Positions 1 through 24,298 of a stretch of DNA of 34,380 bases are shown here, piece by piece. The stretch is taken from IMG/VR virus record IMGVR_UViG_2671180849_000019. One strand, 5' to 3'. This DNA is from a virus (taxonomy: Duplodnaviria > Heunggongvirae > Uroviricota > Caudoviricetes). The number at the start of each line of letters is the position of its first letter. The stretch's first letter is position 1. Both the position numbers and the translations under genes were made by a program. Below the pieces are notes generated by a model. The model was given only the letters and a program-made list of their open reading frames with translations, had not been told where the DNA came from and did no database searches.

Positions 1-429
1 ATGTACGTATGGAGCGCTAAATCAAATGGCTTTTTCCCCATATCGGAGAAAGAAAAATTTGAGGCATCAGGTCTGTGGCCTGATGATGGTGTAATAGTCA
101 GTGAGGAAGAACATAAAAAGTTATTTATGGATATTCCACCAGGAAAACAGATTGGAACACTGAATGGAAAACCAGCACTGATAGATATTCCTCAGCCGAC
201 CAAAAAGGAATTAATAGCTATTGCTGAAGTTAAAAAATCCCAATTACGGGAAAAAGCTGACAGTGAAATATCCTGGCGTCAGGATGCTGTTGATGCTGAT
301 ATCGCAACTGATGAAGAAACTTCAACTCTCACCGAATGGAAGAAATACCGTGTGCTGCTGATGCGTGTTGATACTTCAACAGCACCCGATATTGAATGGC
401 CTACGCCTCCGGCAGTTCAGGCCAGATGA
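1..429 (+). CDS. tail fibre assembly protein (Tfa/U-like); may be 5'-truncated by the window edge
   Basis: C-terminus ...[23 protein letters not shown] resembles the conserved C-terminus of lambda Tfa / Mu U family chaperones. Convergent with, and overlapping by 29 bp, a second Tfa gene on the opposite strand. Confidence 0.75.
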
Positions 430-994
430 CATCCGGCGCGGTGCTGGTATCTGTTGCCGTCACCGCGTCAATGTAATCCAGCACGGTGTTAAGTCGGGTT
501 GTTTCTGCCTGAGTCAGTTTCCGTCCGGCCTGTAATTTCAGCTGAATCAGACTAATGGAAGCCATTACTGCATCAATCAGTGACTGGCGCTGTGCTTCTG
601 CTGCTTCTACTGCGGCGTTATGCTGTGCCTCAGTATCTGTCACCCATTTCTCACCATCCCATTTATCATATGGCGTTAACGGTGAAAGCGTGACATAACC
701 GTTTTTGATGGCACCGATATAATCCACTGTAACAGCTGCGCCATTTTCTGTTGAGTAAACAGTCTCATTGCGATGGTCTTCTTCATGGCTCCATCCCTTA
801 CCCGTAAATACTGCCACTTTCCCCGGAATGTTTTCGCCCGGGTCAATACCAGTGGAACAGGCGGGCATACTTACGCCAGTATTAATATATTCATCAGACC
901 AGCCCGTATACTCAGATGTTTCAGCATCATAATAAAAACAACGCATATCGCCCGGCACTGTAGCCAGCCCATTTTTATCAAAAACAGGTTTCAT
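401..994 (-). CDS. tail fibre assembly protein (second, inverted copy; partner of the silent fibre cassette)
   Basis: 197-aa ORF with Tfa-like C-terminus (...[20 protein letters not shown]). Its ATG overlaps the stop of the upstream fibre cassette (TAATG). Confidence 0.8.
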
Positions 995-1451
995 TATTTA
1001 GCCCTCACCAGAAAGTTAAATGCAATATTTCGCGGTCTGACAGCAACAAAATTCACACCATCACCCACAGAGTTACTGGTGAAATTAAATCGTGAAAATC
1101 CTGGCTGATTTCCGGCGATGCCATCATGAAAGTTAATTGCGTGTCCCGCACCTCCGCCTATATTCCCGGCAAACTGAGAAAAGTTTGTAGCTTCCTGCCA
1201 GCTTAATAATTCGCGACCACCGTCTGCACCTCGCCCGTCATCCCAGATACGAATGAAATCACCGCGGGCTTCAGGTAATACCAGCGAAGGAAATACTTTC
1301 GCCAGCACAGGATAATCAGTGGCAGAGAATTTCGCGCCGTTGAACTTCAAAAACACCATACTGGACCAGCTGTCGATTACAGTATTTGGCATTGCAGCGG
1401 ACGGCCAGAAGAACGGAACGCCAATAGCTGGAGCACCTTCTCCCAAACCAA
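994..1451 (-). CDS. tail fibre C-terminal cassette (Sv'-like), silent: starts at the invertase crossover site and has no start codon of its own in this orientation
   Basis: Reading frame open from crossover site 1438-1463 to the stop at 994-996. Residues GLGEGAPAIGVPFFWPSAAMPNT... are identical to the distal part of the H ORF at 8317-8700. Confidence 0.65.
1068..1451. repeat. 384-bp segment identical to 8317-8700; identity ends at the invertase crossover dinucleotide
   Basis: Base-by-base comparison of the two stretches in the window shows no mismatch or indel. The flank beyond 1451 (CGTTTAAGAAAA, invertase side) differs from the flank beyond 8700 (GGTATGTGAGAA, H side). Confidence 0.95.
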
Positions 1452-1463
1452 CGTTTAAGAAAA
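1438..1463. other. DNA invertase crossover site (hix/gix/cix-like), TTCTCCCAAACC-AA-CGTTTAAGAAAA
   Basis: 26-bp imperfect dyad with central AA, resembling Hin/Gin recombination sites. Lies 50 bp upstream of the invertase gene and exactly at the repeat boundary. Confidence 0.6.
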
Positions 1464-1512
1464 TGCAGAGGTACCAGCTAACTGGCATCATCTCCGGTTT
1501 TTATTCAGGGGG

Positions 1513-2085
1513 ATGATCATGCTTATTGGCTATGTACGCGTGTCAACAAATGACCAGAACACCGATTTGCAACGTAATGCACTGAACTGCGCGGGATGTG
1601 AGCGGATTTTTGAGGACAAAATCAGTGGCACTAAGTCCGACAGACCGGGGCTGAAAAAACTACTCAGGACACTATCGGCAGGAGACACGCTGGTTGTCTG
1701 GAAGCTGGACAGGTTGGGGCGCAGTATGCGGCATCTTGTTACGCTGATAGAAGAGTTGCGCCAGCGTGGTGTGAATTTCAGAAGCCTGACTGACAGTATT
1801 GATACCAGTACCCCAATGGGCCGTTTCTTTTTTCATGTCATGGGTGCCCTGGCTGAAATGGAACGCGAACTGATAGTTGAACGTACCAGGGCAGGGCTGG
1901 CTGCAGCTCGTGCCAAAGGCAGAGTAGGTGGACGCCGTCCTAAGTTGACCACCGAACAGTGGGCACAGATTGGGCGTTTACTCGAGGCCGGAGAATCAAT
2001 ACAGCGTATTGCACTGATTTTTGATGTAGGCGTTTCTACCATTTATAGAAAATTTCCGGCAAATAAGATCAATGAATCCCCCTGA
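1513..2085 (+). CDS. serine DNA invertase (Pin/Gin/Cin/Hin family)
   Basis: N-terminus LIGYVRVSTNDQNTDLQRNAL with the catalytic Ser in the VRVST context, plus VVWKLDRLGRS, SPMGRFFFHVMGALAEMERELIVERT and a C-terminal HTH; near-colinear with e14 Pin as recalled. Start may be the ATG at 1519. Confidence 0.9.
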   Translation: MIMLIGYVRVSTNDQNTDLQRNALNCAGCERIFEDKISGTKSDRPGLKKLLRTLSAGDTLVVWKLDRLGRSMRHLVTLIEELRQRGVNFRSLTDSIDTSTPMGRFFFHVMGALAEMERELIVERTRAGLAAARAKGRVGGRRPKLTTEQWAQIGRLLEAGESIQRIALIFDVGVSTIYRKFPANKINESP

Positions 2086-2133
2086 ATCAGCATTATGTTG
2101 ATTATCCCTGCAAGCAGACAAATACCGTTATTT

Positions 2134-2151
2134 TGTGTGAATAACGACACA
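2134..2151 (+). promoter_or_regulatory. P2-type late promoter activator dyad (TGT-N12-ACA) upstream of FI
   Basis: TGTgtgaataacgacACA lies about 85 bp upstream of the FI start. P2 late promoters carry this dyad centred near -55 (Ogr-dependent). Confidence 0.45.
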
Positions 2152-2227
2152 ACTGCGCTTAGCTGTTTGTCAGGCACAATCACTTCAACATAGGGCGAAG
2201 CCTAATCCAATCAGGAGGTTCGCCACT

Positions 2228-3400
2228 ATGGCTCAGGATTACCACCACGGGGTGCGCGTTGTTGAAGTCAACGAAGGCACCCGATCTATTACCACGGTGA
2301 GCACCGCCATCGTGGGTATGGTCTGCACGGGCGATGATGCCGATGCAAAAATGTTTCCTCTTAATAAACCCGTGCTGATCACTGATGTGCTGACTGCCAG
2401 CGGTAAAGCGGGTGAGTCAGGTACTCTGGCCCGTTCGCTGGATGCCATCGCTGACCAGGCAAAACCCGTGACCATTGTTGTGCGTGTGCCGCAGGGTGAA
2501 ACGGAAGACGAAACCACGACCAATATCATCGGCGCAGTGACTGCTGAAGGTAAAAAAACAGGTATGAAAGCCCTGTTATCTGCCCAGTCACAGCTCGGCG
2601 TTAAACCGCGCATTCTCGGCGTGCCAGGCCACGACACCAAGGCGGTAGCTACTGAGTTGCTGAGCGTGGCGCAACGCCTGCGTGGATTTGCTTACCTGTC
2701 AGCGTATGGCTGCAAGACAGTGCAGGAGGCGATCACTTACCGCGAAAACTTCAGCCAGCGCGAAGGGATGCTGATCTGGCCTGACTTTACTGGTTGGGAC
2801 ACGGTGCTGAATGCCGAAGCAACGGCATATGCCACCGCCCGTGCGCTTGGTCTGCGCGCCAAAATTGACGAGCAGACCGGATGGCACAAAAGCCTGTCCA
2901 ACGTGGGCGTGAACGGTGTCACCGGAATTTCTGCAGATGTGTTCTGGGATCTGCAGGACCCGGCAACCGATGCAGGTCTGCTGAACCAGAACGACGTCAC
3001 CACGCTTGTGCGTAAAGACGGTTTCCGCTTCTGGGGTTCCCGCTGCCTGAGTGATGACCCGCTCTTTGCCTTCGAAAACTACACCCGCACGGCGCAGGTG
3101 CTGATGGACACGATGGCAGAAGCACACATGTGGGCGGTGGATAAACCGCTTAACCCGTCGCTGGCCCGCGACATTATCGAAGGTATCCGCGCCAAAATGC
3201 GCAGCCTGGTCAGTCAGGGCTATCTCATTGGTGGTGATTGCTGGCTGGATGAGTCGGTGAACGACAAAGACACGCTGAAAGCCGGAAAACTCACCATCGA
3301 CTACGACTACACGCCAGTGCCGCCACTTGAAAACCTGATGCTGCGTCAGCGCATCACCGATCAGTACCTGGTGAATTTCGCCAGCCAGGTCAGCGCGTAA
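2228..3400 (+). CDS. FI: tail sheath protein (gpFI)
   Basis: 390-aa ORF; [19 protein letters not shown]...[12 protein letters not shown]... and C-terminal ...[22 protein letters not shown] match P2 FI as recalled. AGGAGG RBS upstream. Confidence 0.95.
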
Positions 3401-3409
3401 GGGGACAAC

Positions 3410-3925
3410 ATGGCATTACCACGCAAATTAAAACACCTGAACCTGTTTAACGACGGGAACAACTGGCAGGGGATCGTTGAGTCGCTGACGCTGCCGAAAT
3501 TTACCCGCAAATATGAGAAGTATCGCGGCGGCGGAATGCCGGGTGCGGTGGATGTGGATCTGGGGCTTGATGACAGTGCGCTGGACACAGAATTTTCCAT
3601 TGGTGGTACTGAATTGCTGCTGTTTAAACAGATGGGTAAAGCCACGGTGGATGGCATCCAGCTGCGCTTTACCGGCTCTATTCAGCGTGACGATACCGGG
3701 GAAGTGCAGGCCGTGGAGCTTGTCGTGCGTGGACGTCACAAAGAAGTGGATTCCGGCGAGTGGAAGACGGGCGAAAGCAACACCACCAAAGTGACCAGTA
3801 CCAACAGCTACGCGAAGCTGACCATCAATGGTGAGGTGCTCTATGAAGTGGACCTTATCAACATGGTGGAAATTGTGGACGGTGTGGACCTGATGGAAGC
3901 GCACCGCAACGCCCTCGGCCTCTGA
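3410..3925 (+). CDS. FII: tail tube protein (gpFII)
   Basis: 171-aa ORF immediately downstream of FI, P2 FII-like in size and position. Confidence 0.9.
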   Translation: MALPRKLKHLNLFNDGNNWQGIVESLTLPKFTRKYEKYRGGGMPGAVDVDLGLDDSALDTEFSIGGTELLLFKQMGKATVDGIQLRFTGSIQRDDTGEVQAVELVVRGRHKEVDSGEWKTGESNTTKVTSTNSYAKLTINGEVLYEVDLINMVEIVDGVDLMEAHRNALGL

Positions 3926-3979
3926 TATATCTGAACGGCGCGGGATACCGCGCCAGAACCCAATTGACAGGACAGCAAA

Positions 3980-4282
3980 ATGAGCGATAAGCAGACTGAA
4001 AAGACCATTCAACTGGATACCCCCATCAAGCGCGGTAAAACAGAAATCACCGAAATTGTGCTGCGTAAACCGCAGTCCGGTGCGCTGCGCGGTACACGCC
4101 TGCAGGCCATTATGGATATGGATGTAAACGCGATGATGACCGTGATCCCCCGCATCTCCAGTCCGGCACTGACTGCACAGGAAATTGCAGAGATGGACCC
4201 GGCAGATCTCACTGCCATGTCGGTTGAGGTTGTCACTTTTTTGTTGAAGAAGTCGGTGCTTGCCGGTTTACCGACAGCCTGA
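3980..4282 (+). CDS. E: tail assembly chaperone gpE (zero-frame product)
   Basis: 100-aa ORF between FII and T, containing the slippery heptamer TTTTTTG at 4237-4243 near its 3' end. Confidence 0.85.
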   Translation: MSDKQTEKTIQLDTPIKRGKTEITEIVLRKPQSGALRGTRLQAIMDMDVNAMMTVIPRISSPALTAQEIAEMDPADLTAMSVEVVTFLLKKSVLAGLPTA

Positions 4283-4416
4283 CGGTTGACGATCTGGTGG
4301 CAGATATCGCCACCATTTTTCACTGGCCGCCATCCGTTACTGACGTTATGCCGCTGACCGAAGTGCTGGAATGGCGGTATAAAGCGATTCAGAGAAGCGG
4401 GGCCAACGATGAGTGA
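3980..4416 (+). CDS. gpE+E' fusion predicted from programmed -1 ribosomal frameshift at TTTTTTG (4237-4243)
   Basis: The -1 frame is open for 58 codons from the slip site (FVEEVGACRFTDSLTVDDL...EWRYKAIQRSGANDE) and stops at TGA 4414-4416, overlapping the T start at 4409. Same layout as P2 E/E'. Confidence 0.6.
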
Positions 4417-7400
4417 TAACAACCTGCGTCTGCAGGTCATTCTTAATGCGGTTGACAAGCTCACCCGTCCATTTCGATCTGCGCAGGCCAGTTCAAGAGA
4501 ACTGGCTGCTGCTGTCAAAAAATCCCGCGATGCAATAAAGCAGCTTGATCAGGCCGGGAGCAGTCTGGACAGCTTCCGAAAGCTGCAGGCAGAAAATCAG
4601 AAATTAGGCGACAGGCTGAACTATGCCCGCCAGCGTGCAAATTTGCTCAGTCAGGAACTGGGAGCGATGGGGCCGCCTTCGCAACGTCAGGTTGTTGCTC
4701 TGGGCCGTCAACGGCTGGCTGTTCAGCGCCTGGAAGAACGCCAGAAAAAGCTGCAGCAGCAGACGGCGCTTGTGCGTGCTGAACTGTACCGGGCGGGAAT
4801 TTCTGCGAAAGACGATGCGGGAGCAACTGCCCGTTTAGCCCGTGAAACATCACGTTATAACCAGGAACTTTCGAAACAGGAGGCGCGGCTGAAGCGACTG
4901 GGGGAAGCTCAGCGCAGGATGAATGCAGCGCGTGCCAGTTATGCCCGTTCGCTGGAGGTGCGTGATCGTATTGCAGGTGCCGGAGCCACCACCACGGCTG
5001 CAGGGCTGGCAATGGGTGCGCCAGTGATGGCGGCAGTAAAAAGCTATACCAGCATGGAAGATGCCATGAAAGGTGTGGCAAAGCAGGTCAATGGTCTGCG
5101 TGACGATAATGGCAACCGCACTGCACGTTTTTATGAAATGCAGGATGCCATCAAGGCTGCCAGCGAACAGTTGCCGATGGAAAACGGTGCGGTGGACTTC
5201 GCTGCACTGGTTGAAGGTGGTGCGCGCATGAACGTCGCAAACCCTGACGACAGCTGGGAAGATCAGAAACGTGACCTGCTGGCCTTCGCCAGTACGGCAG
5301 CAAAGGCGGCAACAGCCTTTGAGCTGCCAGCGGATGAACTGTCAGAAAGTCTGGGGAAAATCGCCCAGCTCTACAAAATCCCCACCCGCAATATTGAACA
5401 GCTCGGTGATGCGCTGAACTATCTGGATGATAACGCCATGTCGAAAGGGGCAGACATCATTGATGTGATGCAACGTCTGGGCGGTGTGGCTGACCGTCTG
5501 GATTATCGTAAAGCGGCGGCGCTGGGTTCCACCTTCCTGACACTGGGCGCTGCGCCAGAGGTTGCAGCCAGTGCAGCAAACGCGATGGTGCGTGAATTGT
5601 CCATTGCCACCATGCAAAGCAAGAGTTTCTTTGAAGGGATGAATCTGCTGAAACTCAATCCTGAAGTGATTGAAAAGCAGATGACGAAGGATGCGATGGG
5701 AACCATCCAGCGCGTGCTGGAGAAGGTAAACGCGCTGCCGCAGGACAAGCGCCTGTCTGCCATGACTATGTTGTTTGGTAAAGAGTTTGGCGATGACGCG
5801 GCGAAACTGGCAAACAACCTGCCGGAACTGCAGCGTCAGTTAAAACTGACAGCGGGCAATGATGCGCTCGGCTCCATGCAGAAAGAATCCGACATTAACA
5901 AGGATTCACTTTCTGCGCAGTGATTGCTGGTCAAAACCGGAGCGCAGAACACCTTCAGCAGCCTGGGCGAAACGCTGCGCCAGCCGCTGATGGATATTCT
6001 GTACACGGTGAAAAGCGTCACGGGGGCGTTGCGTCGCTGGGTGGAAGCTAACCCGGAACTGACAGGCACACTGATGAAAGCATCGGCTGTTGTGGCTGCG
6101 GTTACCGTCGGCCTCGGCACCTTAGCGGTGGCGCTGGCTGCAGTGCTGGGGCCGCTGGCAGTGATCCGTCTGGGATTCTCTGTGTTGGGTATCAAAACGT
6201 TATCTTCCGTTACGGCAGCAGTAACTCGAACCAGCAGCGCGTTGTCCTGGCTGGCTGGCGCACCACTGGCACTGCTGCGACGCGGGCTTGCTTCATCGGG
6301 CAACGCCGCAGGTTTACTTACTGCGCCGTTGTCGTCTTTGCGCCGCACGGCATCACTGACGGGAAATGTCCTGAAAACTGTAGCAGGTGCGCCGGTTGCA
6401 CTTTTGCGGTCTGGATTATCCGGTTTACGTGCGGTTGCTGTGATGTTTATGAATCCACTGGCAGCACTACGCGGCGGGCTGGCTGCCGCAGGCACGGTGC
6501 TGCGAGTACTGGCATCTGGTCCACTGGCGATGTTGCGCGTTGCCCTGTATGCCGTATCTGGTCTGTTAGGTGCTCTGCTCAGTCCGATAGGTCTTGTGGT
6601 TACTGCACTGGCGGGTGTGGCACTGGTTGTCTGGAAATACTGGCAACCCATCACCGCATTTCTCGGTGGCGTGGTGGAAGGATTCAAAGCGGCGGCAGGT
6701 CCCATCAGTGCAGCGTTCGAACCGCTTAAGCCTGTGTTCCAGTGGATTGGTGACAAAGTGCAGGCGCTGTGGGGCTGGTTTACTGATCTGCTGACGCCCG
6801 TTAAGTCGACTTCTGCCGAACTGCAGAGCGCAGCGGCAATGGGGCGACGATTCGGGGAGGCACTGGCGGAAGGGCTGAATATGGTTATGCATCCGCTGGA
6901 CTCCCTGAAATCTGGCGTTTCCTGGTTGCTGGATAAACTCGGCATTGTCAGTAAAGAGGCTGCAAAGGCGAAACTGCCGGAAAGCGTGACGCGTCAGCAA
7001 CCTGCGACGGTGAATGCAGACGGTAAAGTGATGATGCCATCGGGTGGTTTTCCGTCATGGGGATATGGCTTTGCGGGGATGTATGACAGCGGCGGCTATA
7101 TCCCGCGCGGGCAGTTTGGCATCGTCGGTGAAAACGGGCCGGAAATTGTTAACGGCCCGGCAAATGTGACCAGCCGGAGAAATACAGCTGCACTGGCTGC
7201 CGTTGTTGCCGGAATGATGGGCGTTGCTGCCGCGCCTGCAGAGCTTCCACCGTTGCACCCTTTGGCACTTCCCGCGAAAGGCGGCGAAGCGATGGTGAGT
7301 CGTGCAGCCACTGTGCCGCCCGTTCAACGGATTGAGGCACCGATGCAGATCATCATTCAGACGCAGCCAGGACAAAGTGCGCAGGATATTGCGCGGGAGG

Positions 7401-7486
7401 TGGCCCGCCAGCTTGATGAACGTGAACGTAGGCTGAAGGCAAAAGCCAGGAGTAACTACAGCGATCAGGGGGGATACGACGCATGA
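4409..7486 (+). CDS. T: tail tape measure protein (gpT-like), interrupted by an in-frame TGA at 5921-5923 (possible pseudogene, readthrough or sequence error)
   Basis: ORFs 4409-5923 and 5924-7486 are in the same frame, separated only by TGA. Coiled-coil-rich N half and Ala/Leu/Gly-rich hydrophobic repeats in the C half are typical of tape measure proteins. Gene sits between E' and U. Confidence 0.8.
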
Positions 7487-7968
7487 TGATGGTGCTGGGA
7501 TTGTACGTGTTTATGCTGCGCACCGTGCCGTATCAGGAGCTGCAGTATCAACGCAGCTGGCGACATGCGGCAAACAGCCGGGTAAACCGACGTCCGTCCA
7601 CGCAGTTTCTGGGACCGGACAACGACATGCTGACGCTTTCCGGTGTTCTTATGCCGGAGATAACAGGTGGCAGGCTGTCGTTGCTGGCACTGGAGCAGAT
7701 GGCAGAACAGGGGAAAGCATGGCCCCTGATTGAAGGCAGCGGCACGATTTATGGCATGTATGTGATTGAGGGACTGAATCAGACTAAAACGGAGTTTTTC
7801 CGCGACGGTATGCCGCGCCGGATTGAGTTCACCCTGTCGCTCAAACGGGTGGATGAATCCCTGTCCGATATGTTCGGTGATCTCAGTGCGCAACTGAATA
7901 ATCTGCAGGAAACGGCAACGTCTGCCTTAAGCGATATCAGTAAAACGGTGGGAGGGCTGCTGTCGTGA
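7483..7968 (+). CDS. U: tail protein gpU
   Basis: 161-aa ORF overlapping the T stop (ATGA), in the P2 gpU position. Confidence 0.9.
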   Translation: MMMVLGLYVFMLRTVPYQELQYQRSWRHAANSRVNRRPSTQFLGPDNDMLTLSGVLMPEITGGRLSLLALEQMAEQGKAWPLIEGSGTIYGMYVIEGLNQTKTEFFRDGMPRRIEFTLSLKRVDESLSDMFGDLSAQLNNLQETATSALSDISKTVGGLLS

Positions 7969-8305
7969 ATTTCAGCTCTGAACTGCTTAACAAAAGCAAC
8001 AAAACTCCGGCATTCAGCATCAGTATTGAGGGTAGGGATATCACCACTGTGCTGGATAACCGCCTGATGAGTCTGACTCTGACGGACAATCGGGGCTTTG
8101 AAGCAGACCAGCTTGATCTGGAGCTGGACGATGCCGACGGGAAAATCGTGCTGCCGCGCCGTGGTGCGGTCATTACGCTGGCGCTGGGCTGGAAGGGGCA
8201 GCCGCTTTTCCCGAAAGGGGCATTCACGGTGGACGAGATTGAACACACTGGCGCACCGGACCGCCTGACTATCCGGGCGCGAAGTGCTGATTTTCGGGAA
8301 ACGCT
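7965..8305 (+). CDS. D: tail protein gpD (late control D family), 3'-truncated by the N-gap
   Basis: ORF starts with start/stop overlap to U and is open for 113 codons until the N run at 8306. Confidence 0.8.
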
Positions 8306-8316
8306 NNNNNNNNNNN
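8306..8316. other. assembly gap (11 N)
   Basis: Literal run of n characters in the sequence. Confidence 1.
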
Positions 8317-8700
8317 CAGAGTTACTGGTGAAATTAAATCGTGAAAATCCTGGCTGATTTCCGGCGATGCCATCATGAAAGTTAATTGCGTGTCCCGCAC
8401 CTCCGCCTATATTCCCGGCAAACTGAGAAAAGTTTGTAGCTTCCTGCCAGCTTAATAATTCGCGACCACCGTCTGCACCTCGCCCGTCATCCCAGATACG
8501 AATGAAATCACCGCGGGCTTCAGGTAATACCAGCGAAGGAAATACTTTCGCCAGCACAGGATAATCAGTGGCAGAGAATTTCGCGCCGTTGAACTTCAAA
8601 AACACCATACTGGACCAGCTGTCGATTACAGTATTTGGCATTGCAGCGGACGGCCAGAAGAACGGAACGCCAATAGCTGGAGCACCTTCTCCCAAACCAA
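8317..8700. repeat. second copy of the 384-bp fibre-cassette segment (identical to 1068-1451), here fused to the constant part of H
   Basis: Exact identity from 8317 up to the crossover dinucleotide at 8699-8700, then divergence. Confidence 0.95.
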
Positions 8701-9748
8701 GGTATGTGAGAAGACCAGCTACATCCTTTCCACTCAAATTGGTAAGCGTATTGTCCAGCGGTTGTTTACCTGCCAGCGCATTAAGCATTGTCGTGGCAAA
8801 GTTCGGATCATTCCCCAGTGCCGCCGCCAGTTCGTTCAGTGTATCCAGTGCAGCAGGTGCAGAACCCACCATTCCTGCAATCGCCGATTTCACAAAAGCC
8901 GTAGTGGCAATCTGTGTATTGTTGACCGACTGCGCCGCCGTGGGGGCTGTTGGCGTTCCGGTGAGTGCCGGACTCGACAACGGTGCTTTTAGTGCCAGCG
9001 CATTGTTAATGGTGGTACTGAAATTCGGATCATTGTTAATGGCTGCGGCTATTTCTTTCAGCGTGTCCAGCGTGGCTGGCGCACCATTAATAAGGGCCGT
9101 CAGTGCCGCCTGTACAAACGCAGTGGTCGCAACCTGCGTGGTATTATTCCCCGCCGCTGGCGTTGGCGCTTTGGGGGTTCCGGTAAATGTCGGGCTGGCT
9201 TTTGGCGCGTACTGTGAATGCGGGTCCGGTGCGGCAAGATGTTTTGCCATCTGATCATCCGCGTACACCTTCAGCTCCAGTGCCTTGTCATCCACATACT
9301 TGCGGGTTGCCAGCACTACAGCAGGGTCGATTTTCAGGGTGATATTGTCCGTGCTGCTGGTAATCAGCACCATGCGCACGGTCTGAGTGCGCCCGCTACC
9401 TTCAGCCAGTTGCGGCTTATAGCTTTCCGGGCAGTTGCCCACGGCAATCAATGCCCCGGACTCATCAAACAAGCCCACTTCACGTATCCACCAACCGCCC
9501 TCGTTTTCAGGGATCACCTGTTCGGCAATAATCTGGCTGCTGTTCTGCGGGTCGATATAAAGCATATTCAGCGCAGCCCGGCGTTTCTCATTTACCAGTG
9601 CCGTCTGCTTTGCGTCCTGCGTTGGCAATACTCCACCGCCATCGCCCACCGCCATATGGGTAATTTTTAGCGGCACACCGAGCGCGGCGGCGCTGGCAAG
9701 TTTCGCCGCGCCAATATCCGTCAGCAGGGTATAAAATTTTGTGCTCAT
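8317..9748 (-). CDS. H: tail fibre protein (gpH-like), 3' end truncated by the N-gap
   Basis: N-terminus MSTKFYTLLTDIGAAKLA...MAVGDGGG...AVGNCPESYKPQLAEGSGRTQTVRMV and the repeated SPxLTGTPTAPT / DTLNELAAALGNDPNFATTM motifs match P2 H as recalled. The ORF-track continuation below 8317 reads through the N run and antisense gpD and is not real. Confidence 0.9.
8687..8712. other. DNA invertase crossover site, TTCTCCCAAACC-AA-GGTATGTGAGAA (H-proximal copy)
   Basis: Same inner half-site and central AA as the site at 1438-1463, different outer half-site. Lies inside the H coding sequence at the constant/variable junction (...TYL|GLGEGAP...). Confidence 0.6.
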
Positions 9749-10350
9749 GGATTCACTCTCATTGTGTCAATAACATGGACCGCCCCGCCTTCATGCGCGG
9801 TGCCACCGGAAATAATCGTTTCGTTGATATACGGATAGATCGTGATTTCTTCGCCAAGATAGCTGGCGGCTCCCACCCAATGCGGGCCGCTGGTCTGCAG
9901 ATTGATGGACATGCCGATCATGTGGCGGCTACATGGTTTGGCATCGCTTATCAGTCGCTCAAGTTCCAGATAGGTATCTTCAGTGATGCCCTGGTCCTGC
10001 ACGCCGATATCCAGGCGAAACGTGCCCGGTGTTTCTCCGGTCTGCCACCACTCAATAATGCGGATCAGGAATCCGAACGGCTCCACCACCCGCCGCACGG
10101 CACTGGTGGTCCCTTTATGCTGATGAATATAAAAAGCATCCTTCACCACCTGGCGCTTGACGCTTTCTGTCCAGCCCTCGTCCCAGCGATCCACAGAGAA
10201 CGCCCAGGCGAGATAAGGCAGGAAACTGACCGGACAGGTTGCCGGATTCCACAAGTCACGAAGCGGCACCTGCAGATCAGAAATCCCGCTGCAGGTTTGC
10301 GCCAGTCGGCGCTCCAGTGGTGTTGAACCCGGTGGCAGCAAACTATTCAT
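9745..10350 (-). CDS. I: baseplate protein gpI
   Basis: LLPPGSTPLERRLA...LWNPATCPVSFLPYLAWAFSVDRWDEGW...FYIHQHKGT matches P2 gpI as recalled. Confidence 0.9.
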   Translation of the reverse strand: MNSLLPPGSTPLERRLAQTCSGISDLQVPLRDLWNPATCPVSFLPYLAWAFSVDRWDEGWTESVKRQVVKDAFYIHQHKGTTSAVRRVVEPFGFLIRIIEWWQTGETPGTFRLDIGVQDQGITEDTYLELERLISDAKPCSRHMIGMSINLQTSGPHWVGAASYLGEEITIYPYINETIISGGTAHEGGAVHVIDTMRVNP

Positions 10351-11251
10351 CCGTTCCTCCGTTGGTTACGCTCCACTGCGTACATGATGCCGCCTGTGTT
10401 TTGTTCAGGACCACATCCGCCAGAGGAGAAGCCAGCTCCACACGCTGCACCCCCTCAACATGCAGGGCGGCAAAGATGGCGCTACGGCGAATATCCCGAC
10501 CAAGACGCGTCTGACTGGCGATGTACTTCTGCAGGCTGGCTTTTGCCGCTGCCATTACCGGCTCTGCTTCCGGTCCAGGATAGAGAAAAATGGTGGCTTC
10601 CACGCGATACGGGATGATTTCTGCGCTGCAAACCGTAAGACGGTCAGCCACCGGGCGGACGTTCTCACTGTTCAGAGCTTTTTCCACCACGTCCAGCAGG
10701 TCTTTTTCTGCAGTTCCATCGCCTTCGCGGCTAAGGACAGTCAGCACCACCTCTGCAGGTGCCGGGCTGGTTGCACTGGCATCCGCCACCCGACCGTCGG
10801 CGCTTCGGGCATGAAATTCATAAGCTGCAGTTGGCCCCGCAACAGAAAGCCCTTCAAAGGCTGCAGGCACACGCAGGCGTAACGCTTCATCGCTTTCCAT
10901 CACAGCTGCAACGGGCGGCACAGCATCATTATCAGCAGGCGTCACCGTCAGGCGTGTCACGTTGTAGTTGGCAGCGAGCTGGTCAAGATCGCCGCCCATC
11001 GCGTAAGCCACCATCACCGCCTGCGCGGCTTCGTTAATGCGCTGGCGCAGAAGCAACTCACGGTAAGCATTCTCCTGCAACAATTTAGTGGCGGGTTCAG
11101 ATTCCAGTTCCAGCGTGCGGATCACTGCTTCCTGCTCATCTTTCGGATGAAGCGCCACAAATTCTGCCTTGCGTTCGGCAAGCAGCGTCTCAAAGTCCGG
11201 CACATCCACAATCTGCGGTGCAGGCAACTGCGAAAGGTCAATCACTGCCAT
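10343..11251 (-). CDS. J: baseplate assembly protein gpJ (start taken at MAVIDLSQLPAP)
   Basis: MAVIDLSQLPAPQIVDVPDFETLLAERKA...LQENAYRELL...VEGVQRVELASPLADVVL is P2 J-like. The ORF track starts 13 codons upstream. Confidence 0.9.
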   Translation of the reverse strand: MAVIDLSQLPAPQIVDVPDFETLLAERKAEFVALHPKDEQEAVIRTLELESEPATKLLQENAYRELLLRQRINEAAQAVMVAYAMGGDLDQLAANYNVTRLTVTPADNDAVPPVAAVMESDEALRLRVPAAFEGLSVAGPTAAYEFHARSADGRVADASATSPAPAEVVLTVLSREGDGTAEKDLLDVVEKALNSENVRPVADRLTVCSAEIIPYRVEATIFLYPGPEAEPVMAAAKASLQKYIASQTRLGRDIRRSAIFAALHVEGVQRVELASPLADVVLNKTQAASCTQWSVTNGGTDE

Positions 11252-18169: not shown

Positions 18170-19936
18170 ATGAACACCACACTGACACCCGCAGATCTCG
18201 ATCCCCGTCGGCAGGCCATGCTGCTGTACTTTCAGGGATACCGCGTAGCCCGCATTGCTGAAATGCTGGGCGAGAAAGTTGCAACCGTTCACAGCTGGAA
18301 AAAACGCGACAAGTGGGGTGACTATGGGCCGCTGGATCAGATGCAGCTCACCACCGCCGCACGCTACTGCCAGCTCATTATGAAGGAGCACAAAGAAGGG
18401 AAAGATTTCAAAGAAATTGACCTGCTGGCGCGCCAGTCGGAGCGCCACGCGCGCATCGGCAAGTTTAACAATGGCGGTAACGAAGCCGACTTAAACCCTA
18501 ACGTCGCCAACCGCAACAAAGGCCCGCGCCGTCAGCCGGAAAAGAACGTTTTCACCGATGAACAAATTGAGAAGCTGGAAGAAATCTTCCACTCCTCCAT
18601 GTTCAACTACCAGCGCCACTGGTGGGAAGCCGGAAAAACCAACCGCATCCGCAACCTGCTGAAGTCACGCCAGATCGGCGCGACCTTTTACTTTGCCCGT
18701 GAAGCCCTGATTGACGCCCTGCTGACCGGACGTAACCAGATTTTCCTTTCCGCCAGTAAGGCACAGGCCCACGTCTTTAAGCAGTACATCATCGACTTCG
18801 CCAAAGAAGTGGAGGTGGAGCTGAAAGGCGATCCGATGGTGCTTCCTAACGGGGCCACGCTTTACTTCCTCGGCACCAATGCCCGCACAGCCCAGAGTTA
18901 TCACGGTAACCTGTATCTGGATGAATATTTCTGGATACCGAAATTCCAGGAGCTGCGCAAAGTGGCTTCCGGTATGGCTATTCACAAAAAATGGCGACAA
19001 ACCTATTTTTCCACGCCATCCAGCCTGACCCACAGTGCTTATCCGTTCTGGTCCGGTGCGCTGTTCAACCGTGGACGCAACAAAGCCGACAAGGTGGACA
19101 TCGACCTGTCCCACAGCAATCTGGCCCCCGGCCTGCTGTGCGCAGACGGGCAGTACCGCCAGATAGTCACTGTGGAAGATGCGGTGCGCGGCGGCTGCAA
19201 CTTGTTCGACCTCGACCAGTTACGCATGGAATACAGCCCGGATGAATACCAGAACCTGCTGATGTGTGAGTTCGTGGACGATCTCGCGTCCGTGTTCCCG
19301 CTCAGCGAGCTGCAGGGGTGCATGGTGGACAGCTGGGAAGTCTGGACCGACTTTCATGCACTGGCGCTGCGCCCGTTTGGCTGGCGCGAAGTGTGGATCG
19401 GTTATGACCCGGCAAAAGGTACGCAAAACGGCGACAGCGCCGGGTGCGTGGTGGTGGCACCGCCAGCCGTGCCGGGCGGTAAGTTCCGCATTCTTGAGCG
19501 TCACCAGTGGCGCGGAATGGACTTCCGCGCCCAGGCTGACGCCATCAAAAAACTGACCGAGCAGTACAACGTGACCTATATCGGCATTGACTCGACAGGC
19601 GTCGGTCACGGGGTTTATGAGAACGTGAAAGCGTTCTTTCCTGCCGTCCGGGAGTTTGTCTACAACCCCAACGTTAAAAACGCTCTGGTACTCAAGGCCT
19701 ACGACATTATCAGCCACCGCCGTCTGGAGTTTGACGCCGGACACACCGACATAGCGCAGTCATTTATGGCAATCCGTCGCGCCACCACCGCCAGTGGCAA
19801 CCGCCCGACCTATGAAGCCAGCCGCAGCGAAGAAGCCAGCCACGCCGATCTGGCCTGGGCAACAATGCACGCACTGTTTAACGAACCACTGCAAGGCGAG
19901 TCCGCCAATACCAGTAATATTGTGGAGATTTTTTGA
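18170..19936 (+). CDS. P: terminase ATPase (large) subunit gpP
   Basis: 588-aa ORF, divergent from O and followed by Q, as in P2. Confidence 0.9.
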   Translation: MNTTLTPADLDPRRQAMLLYFQGYRVARIAEMLGEKVATVHSWKKRDKWGDYGPLDQMQLTTAARYCQLIMKEHKEGKDFKEIDLLARQSERHARIGKFNNGGNEADLNPNVANRNKGPRRQPEKNVFTDEQIEKLEEIFHSSMFNYQRHWWEAGKTNRIRNLLKSRQIGATFYFAREALIDALLTGRNQIFLSASKAQAHVFKQYIIDFAKEVEVELKGDPMVLPNGATLYFLGTNARTAQSYHGNLYLDEYFWIPKFQELRKVASGMAIHKKWRQTYFSTPSSLTHSAYPFWSGALFNRGRNKADKVDIDLSHSNLAPGLLCADGQYRQIVTVEDAVRGGCNLFDLDQLRMEYSPDEYQNLLMCEFVDDLASVFPLSELQGCMVDSWEVWTDFHALALRPFGWREVWIGYDPAKGTQNGDSAGCVVVAPPAVPGGKFRILERHQWRGMDFRAQADAIKKLTEQYNVTYIGIDSTGVGHGVYENVKAFFPAVREFVYNPNVKNALVLKAYDIISHRRLEFDAGHTDIAQSFMAIRRATTASGNRPTYEASRSEEASHADLAWATMHALFNEPLQGESANTSNIVEIF

Positions 19937-20973
19937 TGGGAAAGCGTAAGAAAAACCGCGCAGCGGCGATGAATCAGATCCAGCATAAAAGCCAGACTTC
20001 AGCCGAAGCATTCAGCTTCGGCGATCCCGTTCCTGTTCTGGACCGCCGCGAATTACTGGACTATGTGGAATGCGTACAGATGGACCGCTGGTATGAGCCA
20101 CCAGTGAGTTTCGACGGACTGGCGCGAACCTTCCGCGCCGCCGTGCATCATAGCTCACCGATTGCGGTGAAATGCAACATTCTGACCAGCACCTACATCC
20201 CTCACCCGCTGCTCAGCCAGCAGGCTTTTTCACGTTTTGTGCAGGACTATCTGGTATTTGGTAACGCCTACCTGGAGAAACGCACGAACCGGTTCGGTGA
20301 AATTATCGCCCTTGAGCCTGCGCTGGCAAAATACACCCGACGCGGGTTAGACCTGGATACCTACTGGTTTGTGCAATACGGTATGACAACCCAGCCGTAT
20401 CAGTTCACGAAAGGCAGCATCTTTCATCTGATGGAACCCGATATCAACCAGGAGATCTACGGCCTGCCCGGCTATCTTTCTGCCATTCCGTCAGCCCTGC
20501 TCAACGAGTCCGCCACGCTGTTCCGACGCAAATATTATATTAATGGCAGCCATGCAGGATTCATAATGTACATGACCGATGCCGCTCAGAACCAGGAGGA
20601 TGTGAACAACCTCCGCAACGCGATGAAAAGCGCCAAAGGTCCGGGCAACTTCCGCAACCTGTTTATGTACTCGCCTAACGGCAAAAAGGACGGGCTTCAG
20701 ATCATCCCGCTGTCAGAAGTGGCGGCAAAGGATGAGTTTCTGAACATCAAGAACGTAAGCCGGGACGACATGATGGCGGCGCATCGTGTGCCGCCGCAAA
20801 TGATGGGGATTATGCCGAATAATGTTGGGGGGTTTGGGGATGTGGAGAAGGCAAGCCGTGTATTCGTCCGAAATGAGCTAATGCCACTACAAAAGCGATT
20901 ACAGGAGATGAATGATTGGCTTGGCAAGGAGGCGATACAGTTTAATACCTACTCGCTAGATATAGTCCCATAA
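19933..20973 (+). CDS. Q: portal (capsid portal vertex) protein gpQ
   Basis: 346-aa ORF overlapping the P stop; size and position as P2 Q. Confidence 0.9.
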   Translation: MMGKRKKNRAAAMNQIQHKSQTSAEAFSFGDPVPVLDRRELLDYVECVQMDRWYEPPVSFDGLARTFRAAVHHSSPIAVKCNILTSTYIPHPLLSQQAFSRFVQDYLVFGNAYLEKRTNRFGEIIALEPALAKYTRRGLDLDTYWFVQYGMTTQPYQFTKGSIFHLMEPDINQEIYGLPGYLSAIPSALLNESATLFRRKYYINGSHAGFIMYMTDAAQNQEDVNNLRNAMKSAKGPGNFRNLFMYSPNGKKDGLQIIPLSEVAAKDEFLNIKNVSRDDMMAAHRVPPQMMGIMPNNVGGFGDVEKASRVFVRNELMPLQKRLQEMNDWLGKEAIQFNTYSLDIVP

Positions 20974-21007: not shown

Positions 21008-21748
21008 TTACTCAATAGGTTCAAACTCATCCTGAGGAATCAGCGTCGATTGACAGGCTTGGCTTAGTACTCCTGATAATTTACATAATAACCGATAGTT
21101 ATGAGGAGCATCATCGCTAATCTTTTCGACCGTTAAAGTGATTGATTTTGGATCATCCAATAACATCTTCTTGATATCATTACTTAAATACCTAGGGCAG
21201 TAACCAACGATTTCAGCTGGTTTATCTGCACGAACGACAACAGCATCCCCATCGTATTCATTTTGAAGATCCAAGCAAAGACGCAAAATTTGCCCCGGTT
21301 TCAATTCAGATACACGAGCATTAGCTAAGCTATTTAAGTAACCAAGTCCATGTAAGAAGAAAAAATGCTCAAAGTTACCATCAGAATCAACATCAATTTT
21401 TTTGAAAATCTGCAGCTGATCAGTGCTTCGTAAGCCTCCCGAGCGAGCAAGAATATCGATAGGATTTACCTTATCTTCTTCAAATCCAAGCCATTTAATG
21501 AAACTCGGATACTCTGGACGTCTCGGTGATAAAAGGCGATTTTTAAAAAGAGGAAACAATTCTTCCGAAACATAAGTTTCACGAACATCACTCATGCCGC
21601 TAAACTTTGTAAATTTAGTAGATTTGAGAGCACCTTTGGTATACCTGAAAACATACCCCGATTTGCGCTCTTGCAAGTTACCAACAACATGCCAGTCTCT
21701 GGTATCTGGTGCCTGCCATGCGACGTAAACGGAGTTTGTATTAGTCAT
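21008..21748 (-). CDS. hypothetical protein with C-terminal HIRAN-like domain (predicted DNA 3'-end binding); second gene of the kinase cassette
   Basis: 246-aa ORF whose ATG overlaps the kinase stop (ATGA). Segment LRLCLDLQNEYDGDAVVVRADKPAEIVGYCPRYL fits the HIRAN signature as recalled. Confidence 0.6.
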   Translation of the reverse strand: MTNTNSVYVAWQAPDTRDWHVVGNLQERKSGYVFRYTKGALKSTKFTKFSGMSDVRETYVSEELFPLFKNRLLSPRRPEYPSFIKWLGFEEDKVNPIDILARSGGLRSTDQLQIFKKIDVDSDGNFEHFFFLHGLGYLNSLANARVSELKPGQILRLCLDLQNEYDGDAVVVRADKPAEIVGYCPRYLSNDIKKMLLDDPKSITLTVEKISDDAPHNYRLLCKLSGVLSQACQSTLIPQDEFEPIE

Positions 21749-22659
21749 TCTAGTAACCTTCTGCGATTTTCCATTACCATTAACGTTGCAAATCTACGTG
21801 CACTGTCGGATATACACGATGAAGGCACTTGGTTAAACACATCTGTAATGGAATCTTCTGTTAAAACGCTCAACTTACCTAACCAATGGTCGCGAGCGGC
21901 AACTCTCCCTTCAACTGCATGTTGAAATGCTTCAACGGTCAGCAAGGGCTTTTTATCAGTTTTTGCTTTGAATAGCTCAGAGCGAGCTTTTCTTACAAAA
22001 CATGGGATTTGTCGATTTTTATCTTTAGTATTAAGCCGTTCGTTACGCTCATCATCTAACATCTCCCTTCCTAAACTAGCGGCATGATCGTATGTTGGAC
22101 ACAAAAACTGCTCACCAGTTTCATTGTTAAGCATGATCGCCCAATTTTCATGATGGCGATCTTGATTACTCACAAGTGCATCGAGCATCAAATATCCACA
22201 AAATACATCTGCTGCATTTAGCCCGGTTAGATCATATACACTCGGAGGAGGCTTGATAGATTCCCTATCTAAACAACCCAATACCCTTGTGACAGTGTGT
22301 TCTCTGACCCTTACCGGCTTTTCCCCGGCTTGTAAAGGCCCAGGATAATCGAATGTCGAACTGTGAAGCACTTCATTTCCCATTACCATCCGGAAACCAG
22401 ATGGAATGATATTCTGAGTCACCACACCGAATCGACCATTGTATCGCGCCAAATCATAGCTAGCATGTGGAATGTTAAGCAAATGACATAACTCAGCAGC
22501 ACACTTTTCAGACCAATGCTCGCCAGTACCTGGCCTAGAGTACTTAAACAACTGCAAATTTACAGTGTCATCGGAGAAATAGAACCAAAACTTCTCTTTG
22601 GTTCCTAACTGTTCAAGATCGTTAGCTACGGGGCTAAGCTCTACCAATTGGTATGGCAT
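21745..22659 (-). CDS. HipA-like Ser/Thr kinase (short, HipT-sized, lacking the HipA N-terminal subdomain)
   Basis: Catalytic-loop motif LVSNQDRHHENWAIM and downstream LCPTYDHAASLG match the HipA D-x-H-x-x-N and P-x-YD motifs; Gly/Lys-rich N-terminal segment QLGTKEKFWFYF. Confidence 0.7.
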   Translation of the reverse strand: MPYQLVELSPVANDLEQLGTKEKFWFYFSDDTVNLQLFKYSRPGTGEHWSEKCAAELCHLLNIPHASYDLARYNGRFGVVTQNIIPSGFRMVMGNEVLHSSTFDYPGPLQAGEKPVRVREHTVTRVLGCLDRESIKPPPSVYDLTGLNAADVFCGYLMLDALVSNQDRHHENWAIMLNNETGEQFLCPTYDHAASLGREMLDDERNERLNTKDKNRQIPCFVRKARSELFKAKTDKKPLLTVEAFQHAVEGRVAARDHWLGKLSVLTEDSITDVFNQVPSSCISDSARRFATLMVMENRRRLLE

Positions 22660-22954: not shown

Positions 22955-23254
22955 CTGCCAAGGGAAGCGTAAATCCGTATCTGAATGACTGCTGAAAAGC
23001 GAATCATACGGGTTTACAAAGATGAAAGTTCGCTGTGAGCGAGAAGCGAACCTTGCAACTTTGTTGGCACAGTTTTAACACCAATTTTTTGAGGATAGCT
23101 AGAAAACTTGTGGCATAAAGGATCAGTTTCCCGATCGAACTTTTTATCAAGAAGGGCTCATAGCAATCGCCAGAAGAAGTGATGTTAAAGTATTGAGCTC
23201 GGCGTTAAGATTAAATAAATTACAGACTAATCCAATGTTTTGTGGAAGGATAAG

Positions 23255-24298
23255 ATGGCAGTCAAGCGCGCATACTACGGTAACGATAGTGACCGAGACT
23301 ACTTAGAGCGGATATTTCAGTCAGCTAACATTAACTTTCTCATCGGATCAGGTGCATCCCTCCCAGCGATTAAAGTACTGGGGACAATCGAAACGGATCT
23401 TCAGCAGCTTATTAATGATGAACAGGAAGATGAATACTTAAGGATGGCAGCTGACTTTTTGTCAGATGTTTGGCTACCTCATGAATGCATGTTGAAGCGC
23501 GGCTACGGCACCCCCTTCGCACCTCAGGTGATCACCGATTTGGAATGTACCCGTGCAAATTATGATGCATTTATGTCTTCACTGGAAAAGATACTGACCC
23601 GCCGCCGAACTGGCCTACTTCCGAGGCGTATTAACGTTTTTACAACTAATTATGATTTATTCATCGAAGAAGCTGCCACACGTAATAACAATATTCTTTT
23701 TAATGATGGATTCAATAGAAGAGCAAGTATTTTGGGAGATGCGGAATTTGATGCGGGTAGCTTTAATCATTCTGTAAGTGCAACCGGAAATCTGTATAAT
23801 TATAAAGTTGAGCTTCCTACTGTTAACCTTATAAAACTTCATGGTTCGCTCTCTTGGCAGCATTCTAAAGGGAAAATCATTTATCGTATTGCAGATATTA
23901 AGCCGCTTGACTTTCCCACCCTAGCCGAAATGAAAGGATGGGTACTTGCTCATGCACTTATTCTTCCACGTAAGGAGAAGTTTAAAGAGACTCTACTACA
24001 GAACGTTTATTATGATTTACTGAGAACCTATTCCAACGAGCTTGATAAAGAAGCAACTTTACTAATTGTCTTTGGGTTCTCGTTTGCTGATGAGCACATT
24101 GAAACGATAACTAAAAAAGCCCTGCGCAACGCCACCCTGAAGCTACTGATCTTTGCTTTCGATGAGGCCAGTGTTAACGGCTTTATGGAGAAATTTCGGG
24201 ATTACTCAAACGTAGAGATTATTTATCGGCCGGGAAGAAATGTTGATTTTCCGGTAATGAATAACATTATCACGTGCTATCTGGGAGGCTCGAGATGA
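23255..24298 (+). CDS. SIR2-family NAD+-binding protein (defence-associated; SIR2 component of a SIR2-HerA pair)
   Basis: Motifs NFLIGSGASLP (Gly-rich NAD loop), VFTTNYDLFIE and LIKLHGSL (catalytic His). Start taken at ATG 23255 after GGAAGGA; the ORF track starts at TTG 23240. Confidence 0.85.
   Translation: MAVKRAYYGNDSDRDYLERIFQSANINFLIGSGASLPAIKVLGTIETDLQQLINDEQEDEYLRMAADFLSDVWLPHECMLKRGYGTPFAPQVITDLECTRANYDAFMSSLEKILTRRRTGLLPRRINVFTTNYDLFIEEAATRNNNILFNDGFNRRASILGDAEFDAGSFNHSVSATGNLYNYKVELPTVNLIKLHGSLSWQHSKGKIIYRIADIKPLDFPTLAEMKGWVLAHALILPRKEKFKETLLQNVYYDLLRTYSNELDKEATLLIVFGFSFADEHIETITKKALRNATLKLLIFAFDEASVNGFMEKFRDYSNVEIIYRPGRNVDFPVMNNIITCYLGGSR

Follow-up and report, generated by a model that had tools for sequence, protein, structure and literature searches.

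A probable Pin-type tail-fibre inversion switch in a P2-like prophage of Escherichia coli, seen in a scaffold that mixes its two states

The gene order of the window

Does a DNA invertase at the left end of this prophage switch the tip of the tail fibre, and if it does, why are the neighbouring genes in an order that does not fit a P2-like genome? The window (the whole stretch of DNA that was analysed, 34,380 nt) is a P2-like (Peduoviridae) prophage of E. coli, as judged by its gene content and domain matches. It corresponds to positions 46-34425 of CYDZ01000025.1 (GCA_001284165.2) and is laid out as follows:

1513-8305, plus strand: invertase, sheath gene FI, tube gene FII, E, tape-measure gene T, U, and the first 113 codons of D
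8306-8316: a run of 11 N, which is a scaffold gap between two contigs
20973 down to 8317, minus strand: genes for the capsid, lysis, the baseplate (V, W, J, I) and the fibre (H)
18170-20973, plus strand: genes for the terminase (P) and the portal (Q)
far right of the window: genes for replication, immunity and the integrase

The left block, from the invertase gene (pin) to D, faces H, and this orientation is wrong for a P2 genome. The left contig breaks off in codon 113 of D, and the right contig opens inside a fibre cassette, Sv'. Where the window has its N gap, sister assemblies that are contiguous have the full D gene and then ogr and ybjL. The record CYDZ01000025.1 extends just 45 nt beyond the left end of the window, so the left contig begins 250 nt inside the segment that we propose to be invertible. 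(The original prediction for this locus did not mention the N run at 8306-8316, a second recombination site at 8687-8712, or a duplicate of part of Sv' at 8317-8700.) A lookup of the 402-aa integrase ORF for the host flank returned just one unrelated short contig; a different start was probably called for this ORF.

A Pin-type invertase and a candidate enhancer

The features of the proposed switch are:

1-429, plus strand: chaperone G, the partner of cassette Sv
401-994, minus strand: chaperone G', the partner of cassette Sv'
994-1451, minus strand: cassette Sv', an alternative C-terminus of the fibre, with about 151 codons and a stop codon at 994-996 (phrog_3100)
1438-1463: invertase-proximal 26-bp site (hixR-like), TTCTCCCAAACCAACGTTTAAGAAAA, which is TTCTCCCAAACC-AA-CGTTTAAGAAAA
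1519-2085, plus strand: Pin-type small serine DNA invertase of 188 aa (Resolvase and HTH_7), with an alternative ATG upstream at 1513
1540-1603: candidate recombinational enhancer at the 5' end of the invertase gene, with two G-N13-C Fis-like cores
8317-8700, minus strand: the opening 384 nt of Sv' again, in direct orientation and 100% identical to 1068-1451
8687-8712: fibre-gene 26-bp site (hixL-like), inside H, TTCTCCCAAACC-AA-GGTATGTGAGAA
8701-9748, minus strand: Hc, the constant N-terminal part of the tail-fibre gene H

The original prediction placed a serine invertase at 1513-2085, and our searches agree. The ORF matches the Pfam families Resolvase (E = 2.9e-53) and HTH_7 (E = 6.4e-16), aligns from end to end with the structures of Gin (3UJ3 and 4M6F, E = 1e-91), and belongs to phrog_125, DNA invertase (E = 1e-100). 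It has the two parts that characterize the Hin/Gin/Cin/Pin (Din) family, which are a resolvase catalytic domain with a nucleophilic serine (Ser9/10) and a C-terminal helix-turn-helix. The protein is identical to PinE of e14 at 156 of 188 positions (83%) and to Gin of Mu at 137 of 193 positions (71%), so describing it as Pin-type is accurate. A mutated active site had been named as a reason to give up the idea of a switch. We found that the catalytic serine is kept (Ser9, within VRVSTNDQ) and that the ORF is intact. The true start is probably the ATG at 1519 (MLIGY..., giving 188 aa), as in the gene calls of relatives, rather than the one at 1513.

Invertases of the Hin/Gin/Cin/Pin type bind a pair of inverted 26-bp sites. 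Exchange at the central dinucleotide is activated by an enhancer that is bound by Fis and lies within the 5' part of the gene for the invertase itself. The invertase gene has two G-N13-C cores near its 5' end, at 1540-1554 (GTGTCAACAAATGAC) and 1589-1603 (GCGCGGGATGTGAGC), at a centre-to-centre distance of 49 nt. When the gene is aligned with e14 pinE and Mu gin, the cores fall at conserved positions. The distal core is rich in G+C. By analogy with the hin and gin enhancers, the cores are candidate Fis sites, and this is a resemblance of position only. A stricter pattern for the Fis consensus found nothing conserved in the alignment of the invertase genes, and it was only the relaxed G-N13-C pattern that did. 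Downstream, between the invertase and FI, lies a match to TGT-N12-ACA (2134-2151), which we take to be the late promoter motif of P2, and therefore FI probably keeps its own Ogr-dependent promoter; the motif is frequent by chance and we give it little weight.

Two 26-bp sites and the point of crossover

According to the title of Johnson and Simon (1985), as it appears in PMC3798978, inversion needs two 26-bp sites and a 60-bp enhancer. The original prediction had a site resembling hix or gix 50 bp from the invertase. Indeed, the site at 1438-1463 ends 49 nt before the ATG at 1513 (55 nt before the one at 1519). This 26-mer has a single copy in the window, and shuffled sequences gave 0 chance matches at up to 3 mismatches. 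It is identical to the pinE-proximal site of e14 at 25 of 26 positions, and homology to the invertase-sheath block of other phages begins at 1437. The second site, at 8687-8712, is identical to the stfP site of e14 at 21 of 26 positions. Both sites are intact, and each has AA at its centre.

The point of crossover can be read from the two copies of Sv'. Their identity stops at 1451, which places the crossover at the central AA (1450-1451) of the site. (The length of the duplicate, 384 nt, comes from direct comparison; the repeat search alone gave 300 nt.) The end of Sv' is joined once to the flank of the invertase and once to the flank of the fibre gene, and the switch point is the dinucleotide at which serine invertases exchange strands. 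Hc reads in frame into the copy of Sv' at 8317-8700, and this is the ON junction. A single base distinguishes the inner half-sites: the one next to Sv' is TTCTCCCAAACC, the one next to Sv is TTCTCCAAAACC, and each moves with its cassette.

In the window the two sites are direct repeats, whereas in a sister assembly (L006) and in phage 500465-1 (L001) they are inverted, 1.74-1.83 kb apart. The direct orientation in the window is due only to the way the scaffold was joined, as we argue below. In these relatives, as in other Hin/Gin/Cin/Pin systems, two inverted 26-bp sites with an identical central dinucleotide flank the segment.

Cassettes and chaperones

Hc has the N-terminal domain of Phage_tail_fib (E = 4.3e-64) and is preceded on the same strand by homologues of I, J, W and V. 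Sv' matches tail-fibre families at their C-terminal end (phrog_3100, positions 210-381 of 382, E = 1.5e-52) and is 41% identical to StfE of e14. It has no start codon of its own within the segment, and its reading frame is the same as that of H across the site. At 994-1451, where it is joined to the flank of the invertase, Sv' is in the OFF position. The ORF at 994-1491 runs 13 codons past the centre of the site, which is outside the segment, and gene callers annotate a 164-aa ORF for the OFF cassette that starts just outside the segment. A promoter scan of 1-2300 gave one promoter-like hit, which is fewer than in shuffled sequences, and none that is placed to drive the OFF cassette. This is weak evidence, but it fits the prediction of a promoterless fibre C-terminal cassette with its own chaperone gene at 401-994.

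The product of that gene, G', matches Caudo_TAP (E = 3.4e-27) and phrog_105 (E = 5.5e-84) and is 63% identical to TfaE of e14. G' converges on G, with an overlap of 29 nt. A second, convergent chaperone gene had been proposed at 1-429, and G is indeed a match to Caudo_TAP (E = 7.4e-34) and to phrog_188 (E = 3.9e-55). G is 33% identical to TfaP of e14, and in LP50-1 it directly follows H. The partner of G, cassette Sv, lies just to the left of the window; the source record holds only its last 45 nt, and it is complete only in L006 and in another sister assembly, L007. The junctions of Hc with Sv and of pin with Sv are absent from the window. In sum, the constant 5' part of the fibre gene lies outside the segment and the start-less 3' cassettes lie within it, in opposite orientations and each with a chaperone, as in the G segment of Mu, the C segment of P1 and the P segment of e14.

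Both orientations are found in essentially identical prophages

L006 (CYDJ01000009.1) contains an essentially identical prophage, uninterrupted between the lysis genes and the host gene ybjL, in which the genes run V-W-J-I-Hc, site, Sv'-G' converging with G-Sv, site, invertase-FI...D-ogr-ybjL. The right contig of the window is 99.97% identical to L006, the terminal 384 nt of Sv' included, and Sv' in L006 continues beyond the 384 nt that are copied at 8317-8700. Between the invertase and U there are 0 mismatches in 6505 nt. The 1744-nt segment of L006 is the reverse complement of the block at 1-1451 of the window (2 mismatches in 1494 nt). In four further assemblies, which carry this prophage with 0 mismatches over the 6.8 kb between the invertase and D, D-ogr-ybjL is intact.

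Assembly graphs would branch at the sites if the reads held both orientations. Two further assemblies of this prophage break there. The contig of L007 starts at the exact centre of the H site, and a Logan contig (L009) starts at position 1445 of the window, the first base past the one-base difference between the half-sites. The structure of these assemblies suggests that both orientations may coexist in the culture of this isolate.

Thus, we conclude that the window is a scaffold that mixes both inversion states of one prophage across an N gap, rather than a rearranged genome. The left contig would cross the invertase-proximal site in one state and the right contig would cross the H site in the other state. 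A join of this kind accounts for the direct-repeat orientation of the sites, the duplication of Sv', and the pin-to-D block that faces H. The record of another sister, L005, has a comparable join across an N gap, of the host gene yehQ to G'.

Across 5426 complete E. coli genomes, the full junction of Sv', site and invertase is present in 256 and the full junction of Sv', site and Hc in 48. With this scaffold and L006, these genomes show the segment in both orientations, with the exchange at the core of the site. The number of places per genome that match a junction has a median of one and reaches 5-6 at the most. As a genome can hold several such places, the two Sv' junctions of the window could come from two P2-like prophages in one genome, each fixed in a different orientation. 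We consider this improbable given that the median is one place, that both contigs of the window match the single contiguous prophage of L006 at 99.97-100%, and that any second copy would need to agree in all 384 nt and stop precisely at the dinucleotide of the crossover. If two prophages were present, inversion in the lineage would still be implied.

A model for the switch

We return to a single prophage in two states. The contiguous relatives give the true order as V-W-J-I-Hc, site, Sv-G converging with G'-Sv', site, and then the invertase reading into FI-FII-E-T-U-D. Very probably, the locus is a site-specific inversion switch of the Pin/e14 type that acts on the tail fibre of this P2-like E. 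coli prophage. The serine invertase would bind the two mutually inverted 26-bp sites and cut at the central AA dinucleotide, and the 1.74-kb segment would flip, probably with the help of Fis bound at a 5' enhancer within the invertase gene. A late transcript that enters from H would read either Hc-Sv and chaperone G or Hc-Sv' and chaperone G'. Virions would then carry one of two receptor-binding tips, with one of two receptor specificities, and the host range would be expected to change with the orientation.

A nonsense codon in the tape-measure gene

The tape-measure gene T has an in-frame TGA at 5921-5923, at a Trp codon. The same codon was hit independently in a prophage lineage that is 98.8% identical, where it is TAG instead of TGA. 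Because of this nonsense codon, the prophage may make no infectious particles, and switching would then have no host-range consequence in this strain.

The nonsense codon could also be a sign that the switch is a frozen relic, with an invertase or sites that are inactive, so that the orientations among isolates are old, fixed events. Related loci do decay: the invertase is frameshifted in CP019275 and a cassette is degraded in LP50-1. Nevertheless, we think that a relic is very unlikely here. The invertase ORF is intact and has all of the residues that Gin and PinE share around the catalytic serine; both sites are intact; the orientation differs between assemblies that have 0 mismatches in flanks of 6.5 kb; and the sites are the exact points at which three assemblies break or branch. 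Furthermore, inversion in P2-like prophages of E. coli has been demonstrated in growing cultures (PMC4272514).

An active switch in a prophage that makes no infectious particles raises another idea, which is that the host keeps the intact switch for its own use. If so, the switch might diversify a tailocin-like particle, or it might produce alternative pieces of the fibre that interfere with other phages, which has been reported for PinQ and PinR in cryptic prophages (PMC12529663; bioRxiv 10.1101/2025.03.28.646004). We find this very doubtful for the prophage studied here.

Finally, it is extremely unlikely that the order in the window is real and reflects a decaying, rearranged prophage in which pin-to-D is inverted relative to H, part of Sv' is present in direct copies, and D is truncated under the 11 N: the deposited record does show this order, the nonsense codon in T suggests decay, and the finished genome of E2348/69 has an aberrant rearrangement beside its invertase, but the junction is the N run itself, with identity to the other copy of Sv' from the first base after it, the left contig starts just 45 nt before the window, D-ogr-ybjL is intact in the four other assemblies (with 0 mismatches over 6.8 kb), L006 is contiguous and has the canonical order, the rearrangement would require a duplication as well as an inversion whose breakpoint in D has no site, and the join of yehQ to G' across the N gap in L005 shows that this project's scaffolds mis-join here.

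For E2348/69, a search returned a same-strand match to 1446-10400, as if this finished genome shared the order of the window. We rejected this match, as the search had joined two pieces. In the annotated region of E2348/69, the V-to-H block is inverted upstream of the invertase, unlike the order in the window. A search for inverted repeats at the breakpoints in E2348/69 found nothing convincing.

The invertase lies in the Z/fun slot

Coming back to the switch in one prophage, we consider its place in the genome. In P2-like phages the late genes run V-W-J-I-H-G ... FI-FII-E-T-U-D, with variable cargo between G and FI, the Z/fun slot. The contiguous relatives L001, L002, L004 and L006 keep this late-gene order, with the cargo between G and FI, and the order H-G-G'-Sv'-invertase-FI is seen in contiguous relatives. 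In another relative (L011), the genes from FI to T are 98% identical to those of the window, and H, one chaperone and an acyltransferase stand where the window has G'-Sv'-invertase. The original prediction was that the invertase would sit between the fibre genes and FI, where P2 carries Z/fun, once the left block was re-oriented. The slot is as predicted. The need to re-orient the block is not biological and is an artefact of the 11-N gap, which joins two states. The broader reading of the locus as a fibre-switching module of the Mu/e14 type is supported.

There is nothing unusual in this arrangement, which has been annotated in Peduoviridae that are classified by the ICTV, is common in E. coli, and is in the literature. 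Escherichia phage 500465-1 (Peduoviridae, Wadgaonvirus) shares the junction of site, invertase and FI (1437-2300) at 99.5% identity, and P2-like phages of Klebsiella and others of Escherichia share it at 96-98%. The annotation of phage 500465-1 lists H, two chaperones, a cassette described as "virion structural protein," a DNA invertase, and then the sheath. In Fels-2, a P2-like prophage of Salmonella, an invertible fibre segment adjoins fin/STM2702 (PMC7953296), and Fels-2/fin also appears in the reference list of PMC4272514. Whole-genome sequencing detected inversion in growing cultures for the P2-like prophages of the EPEC strain E2348/69 (PMC4272514). A survey of P2-like phages reports DNA invertases as frequent cargo of the Z/fun hotspot, together with inversion of neighbouring genes (bioRxiv 10.1101/2024.10.15.618418).

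Comparison with known inversion systems

The prophages most like that of the window are 500465-1, Fels-2 (fin, STM2702) and those of EPEC E2348/69, in which the architecture and its position are identical. Phage 500465-1 has the same two 26-bp sites, inverted. It carries other cassettes, as fibre tips and their chaperones are mosaic; only the content of the cassettes differs, and the window adds the TGA in the tape-measure gene.

The P segment of e14 (stfP-tfaP / tfaE-stfE / pinE) has the same layout, with a constant part, site, cassette and chaperone, a converging chaperone, cassette and site, and an invertase that reads outward. The likeness extends to the invertase (83%), G' and TfaE (63%), Sv' and StfE (41%), and the sites (25/26 and 21/26). 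In contrast, Sv and G of the window are only distantly related to StfP and TfaP (33% for the chaperone). Also, e14 is a lambdoid remnant, while the window is a prophage of a P2-like myovirus; and what lies 3' of the invertase is the tail sheath operon in the window and mcrA in e14. The e14 equivalent of the OFF-cassette ORF is annotated as a pseudogene.

The systems of Mu (G segment, Gin) and P1 (C segment, Cin) share the mechanism and the gene logic. In Mu the order is Sc, gix, Sv-U converging with U'-S'v, gix, gin. The invertase of Mu is 71% identical, and the 26-bp sites share a half-site pattern of the type AAACC...GGTTT but are otherwise loosely similar. The Mu segment is 3 kb and has far longer cassettes, and Mu is a transposable phage that is unrelated to P2 outside of the tail genes.

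Implications

For the biology of P2-like phages, this locus adds nothing new, since invertible fibre segments are textbook material (Mu, P1 and e14) and their placement in the Z/fun slot is annotated, common and published. The caution is for draft assemblies: active invertible segments break assemblies exactly at the recombination sites, and they can yield scaffolds that mix the two states and pass for large rearrangements, duplicated cassettes and truncated genes. Catalogues of prophages that are cut from such scaffolds inherit these artefacts.

Scaffold gaps at the invertible region

An 11-N scaffold gap in the window (8306-8316) cuts off gene D at codon 113 and yields a spurious 603-amino-acid "H" open reading frame (7937-9748), which crosses the gap, runs antisense over the D fragment, and ends within the 3' end of U. 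A sister assembly of the same prophage (L005; GCA_001285585.2, CYDX01000001.1) has a second N-gap join (6555-6568), where the host gene yehQ is directly fused to the start of the fibre chaperone gene G' (window position 977 onward). This shows that the invertible region repeatedly caused mis-scaffolding in this sequencing project.

A rearrangement beside the invertase in E. coli E2348/69

In the finished genome of E. coli E2348/69 (L003; NC_011601.1), the V-W-J-I-Hc block, where Hc is the constant N-terminal part of fibre gene H, is inverted and adjoins the invertase (approximately 5990-10840), and gene S is truncated in this region. The outer half-sites are GGTATGTGAGAA on the Hc side and CGTTTATGAAAA on the pin (invertase) side, and both abut sequences other than the normal inner half-sites. 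There is also a 385-amino-acid hypothetical gene upstream of the invertase. A search of the rearrangement breakpoints for inverted repeats found no clear one. This arrangement looks like the product of aberrant invertase-mediated events.

Alternative cargo before FI

In a related prophage (L011; Logan SRR30543823), the fibre chaperone and the tail sheath gene FI are separated by an Acyl_transf_3 gene (6575-7606), and this slot contains no invertase. Homology between this prophage and the window starts only at the start codon of FI (window 2227), so the region upstream of FI moves together with the cargo in the slot.

Defence genes in the old/tin hotspot

In the window, the P2 old/tin hotspot, with the replication gene on one side and the portal gene on the other, contains two sets of genes:

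23240-26154, + strand: SIR2-HerA, a pair of anti-phage defence genes (PADLOC hits: SIR2, E = 6e-211; HerA, E = 7e-267)
21008-22659, - strand: candidate two-gene defence system PDC-M03 (A, E = 2e-122; B, E = 3e-93)

The components of the PDC-M03 candidate, which adjoins the portal gene, are a HipA-like kinase (A) and a HIRAN-domain protein (B).

Interrupted fibre and tape-measure genes

In another sister assembly (L006; GCA_001284985.1, 4249-5753), fibre gene H differs from the window's copy by a single-base indel, which may be a true frameshift or an error in the sequencing, and which splits the gene into pieces of 158 and 341 amino acids. A second gene is interrupted in the window itself:

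4409-7486: tape-measure gene T

Here, a tryptophan codon has become an in-frame TGA (5921-5923), which cuts T into 504 and 520 amino acids. This TGA is common to all of the sister assemblies, and sequence comparison shows that the codon is TGG in Escherichia phage 500465-1, E2348/69, and the P2-like relative LP50-1. In a separate prophage lineage that is 98.8% identical (L010), the matching codon is TAG instead of TGA, so this tryptophan codon of T appears to have been mutated to a stop twice, independently.
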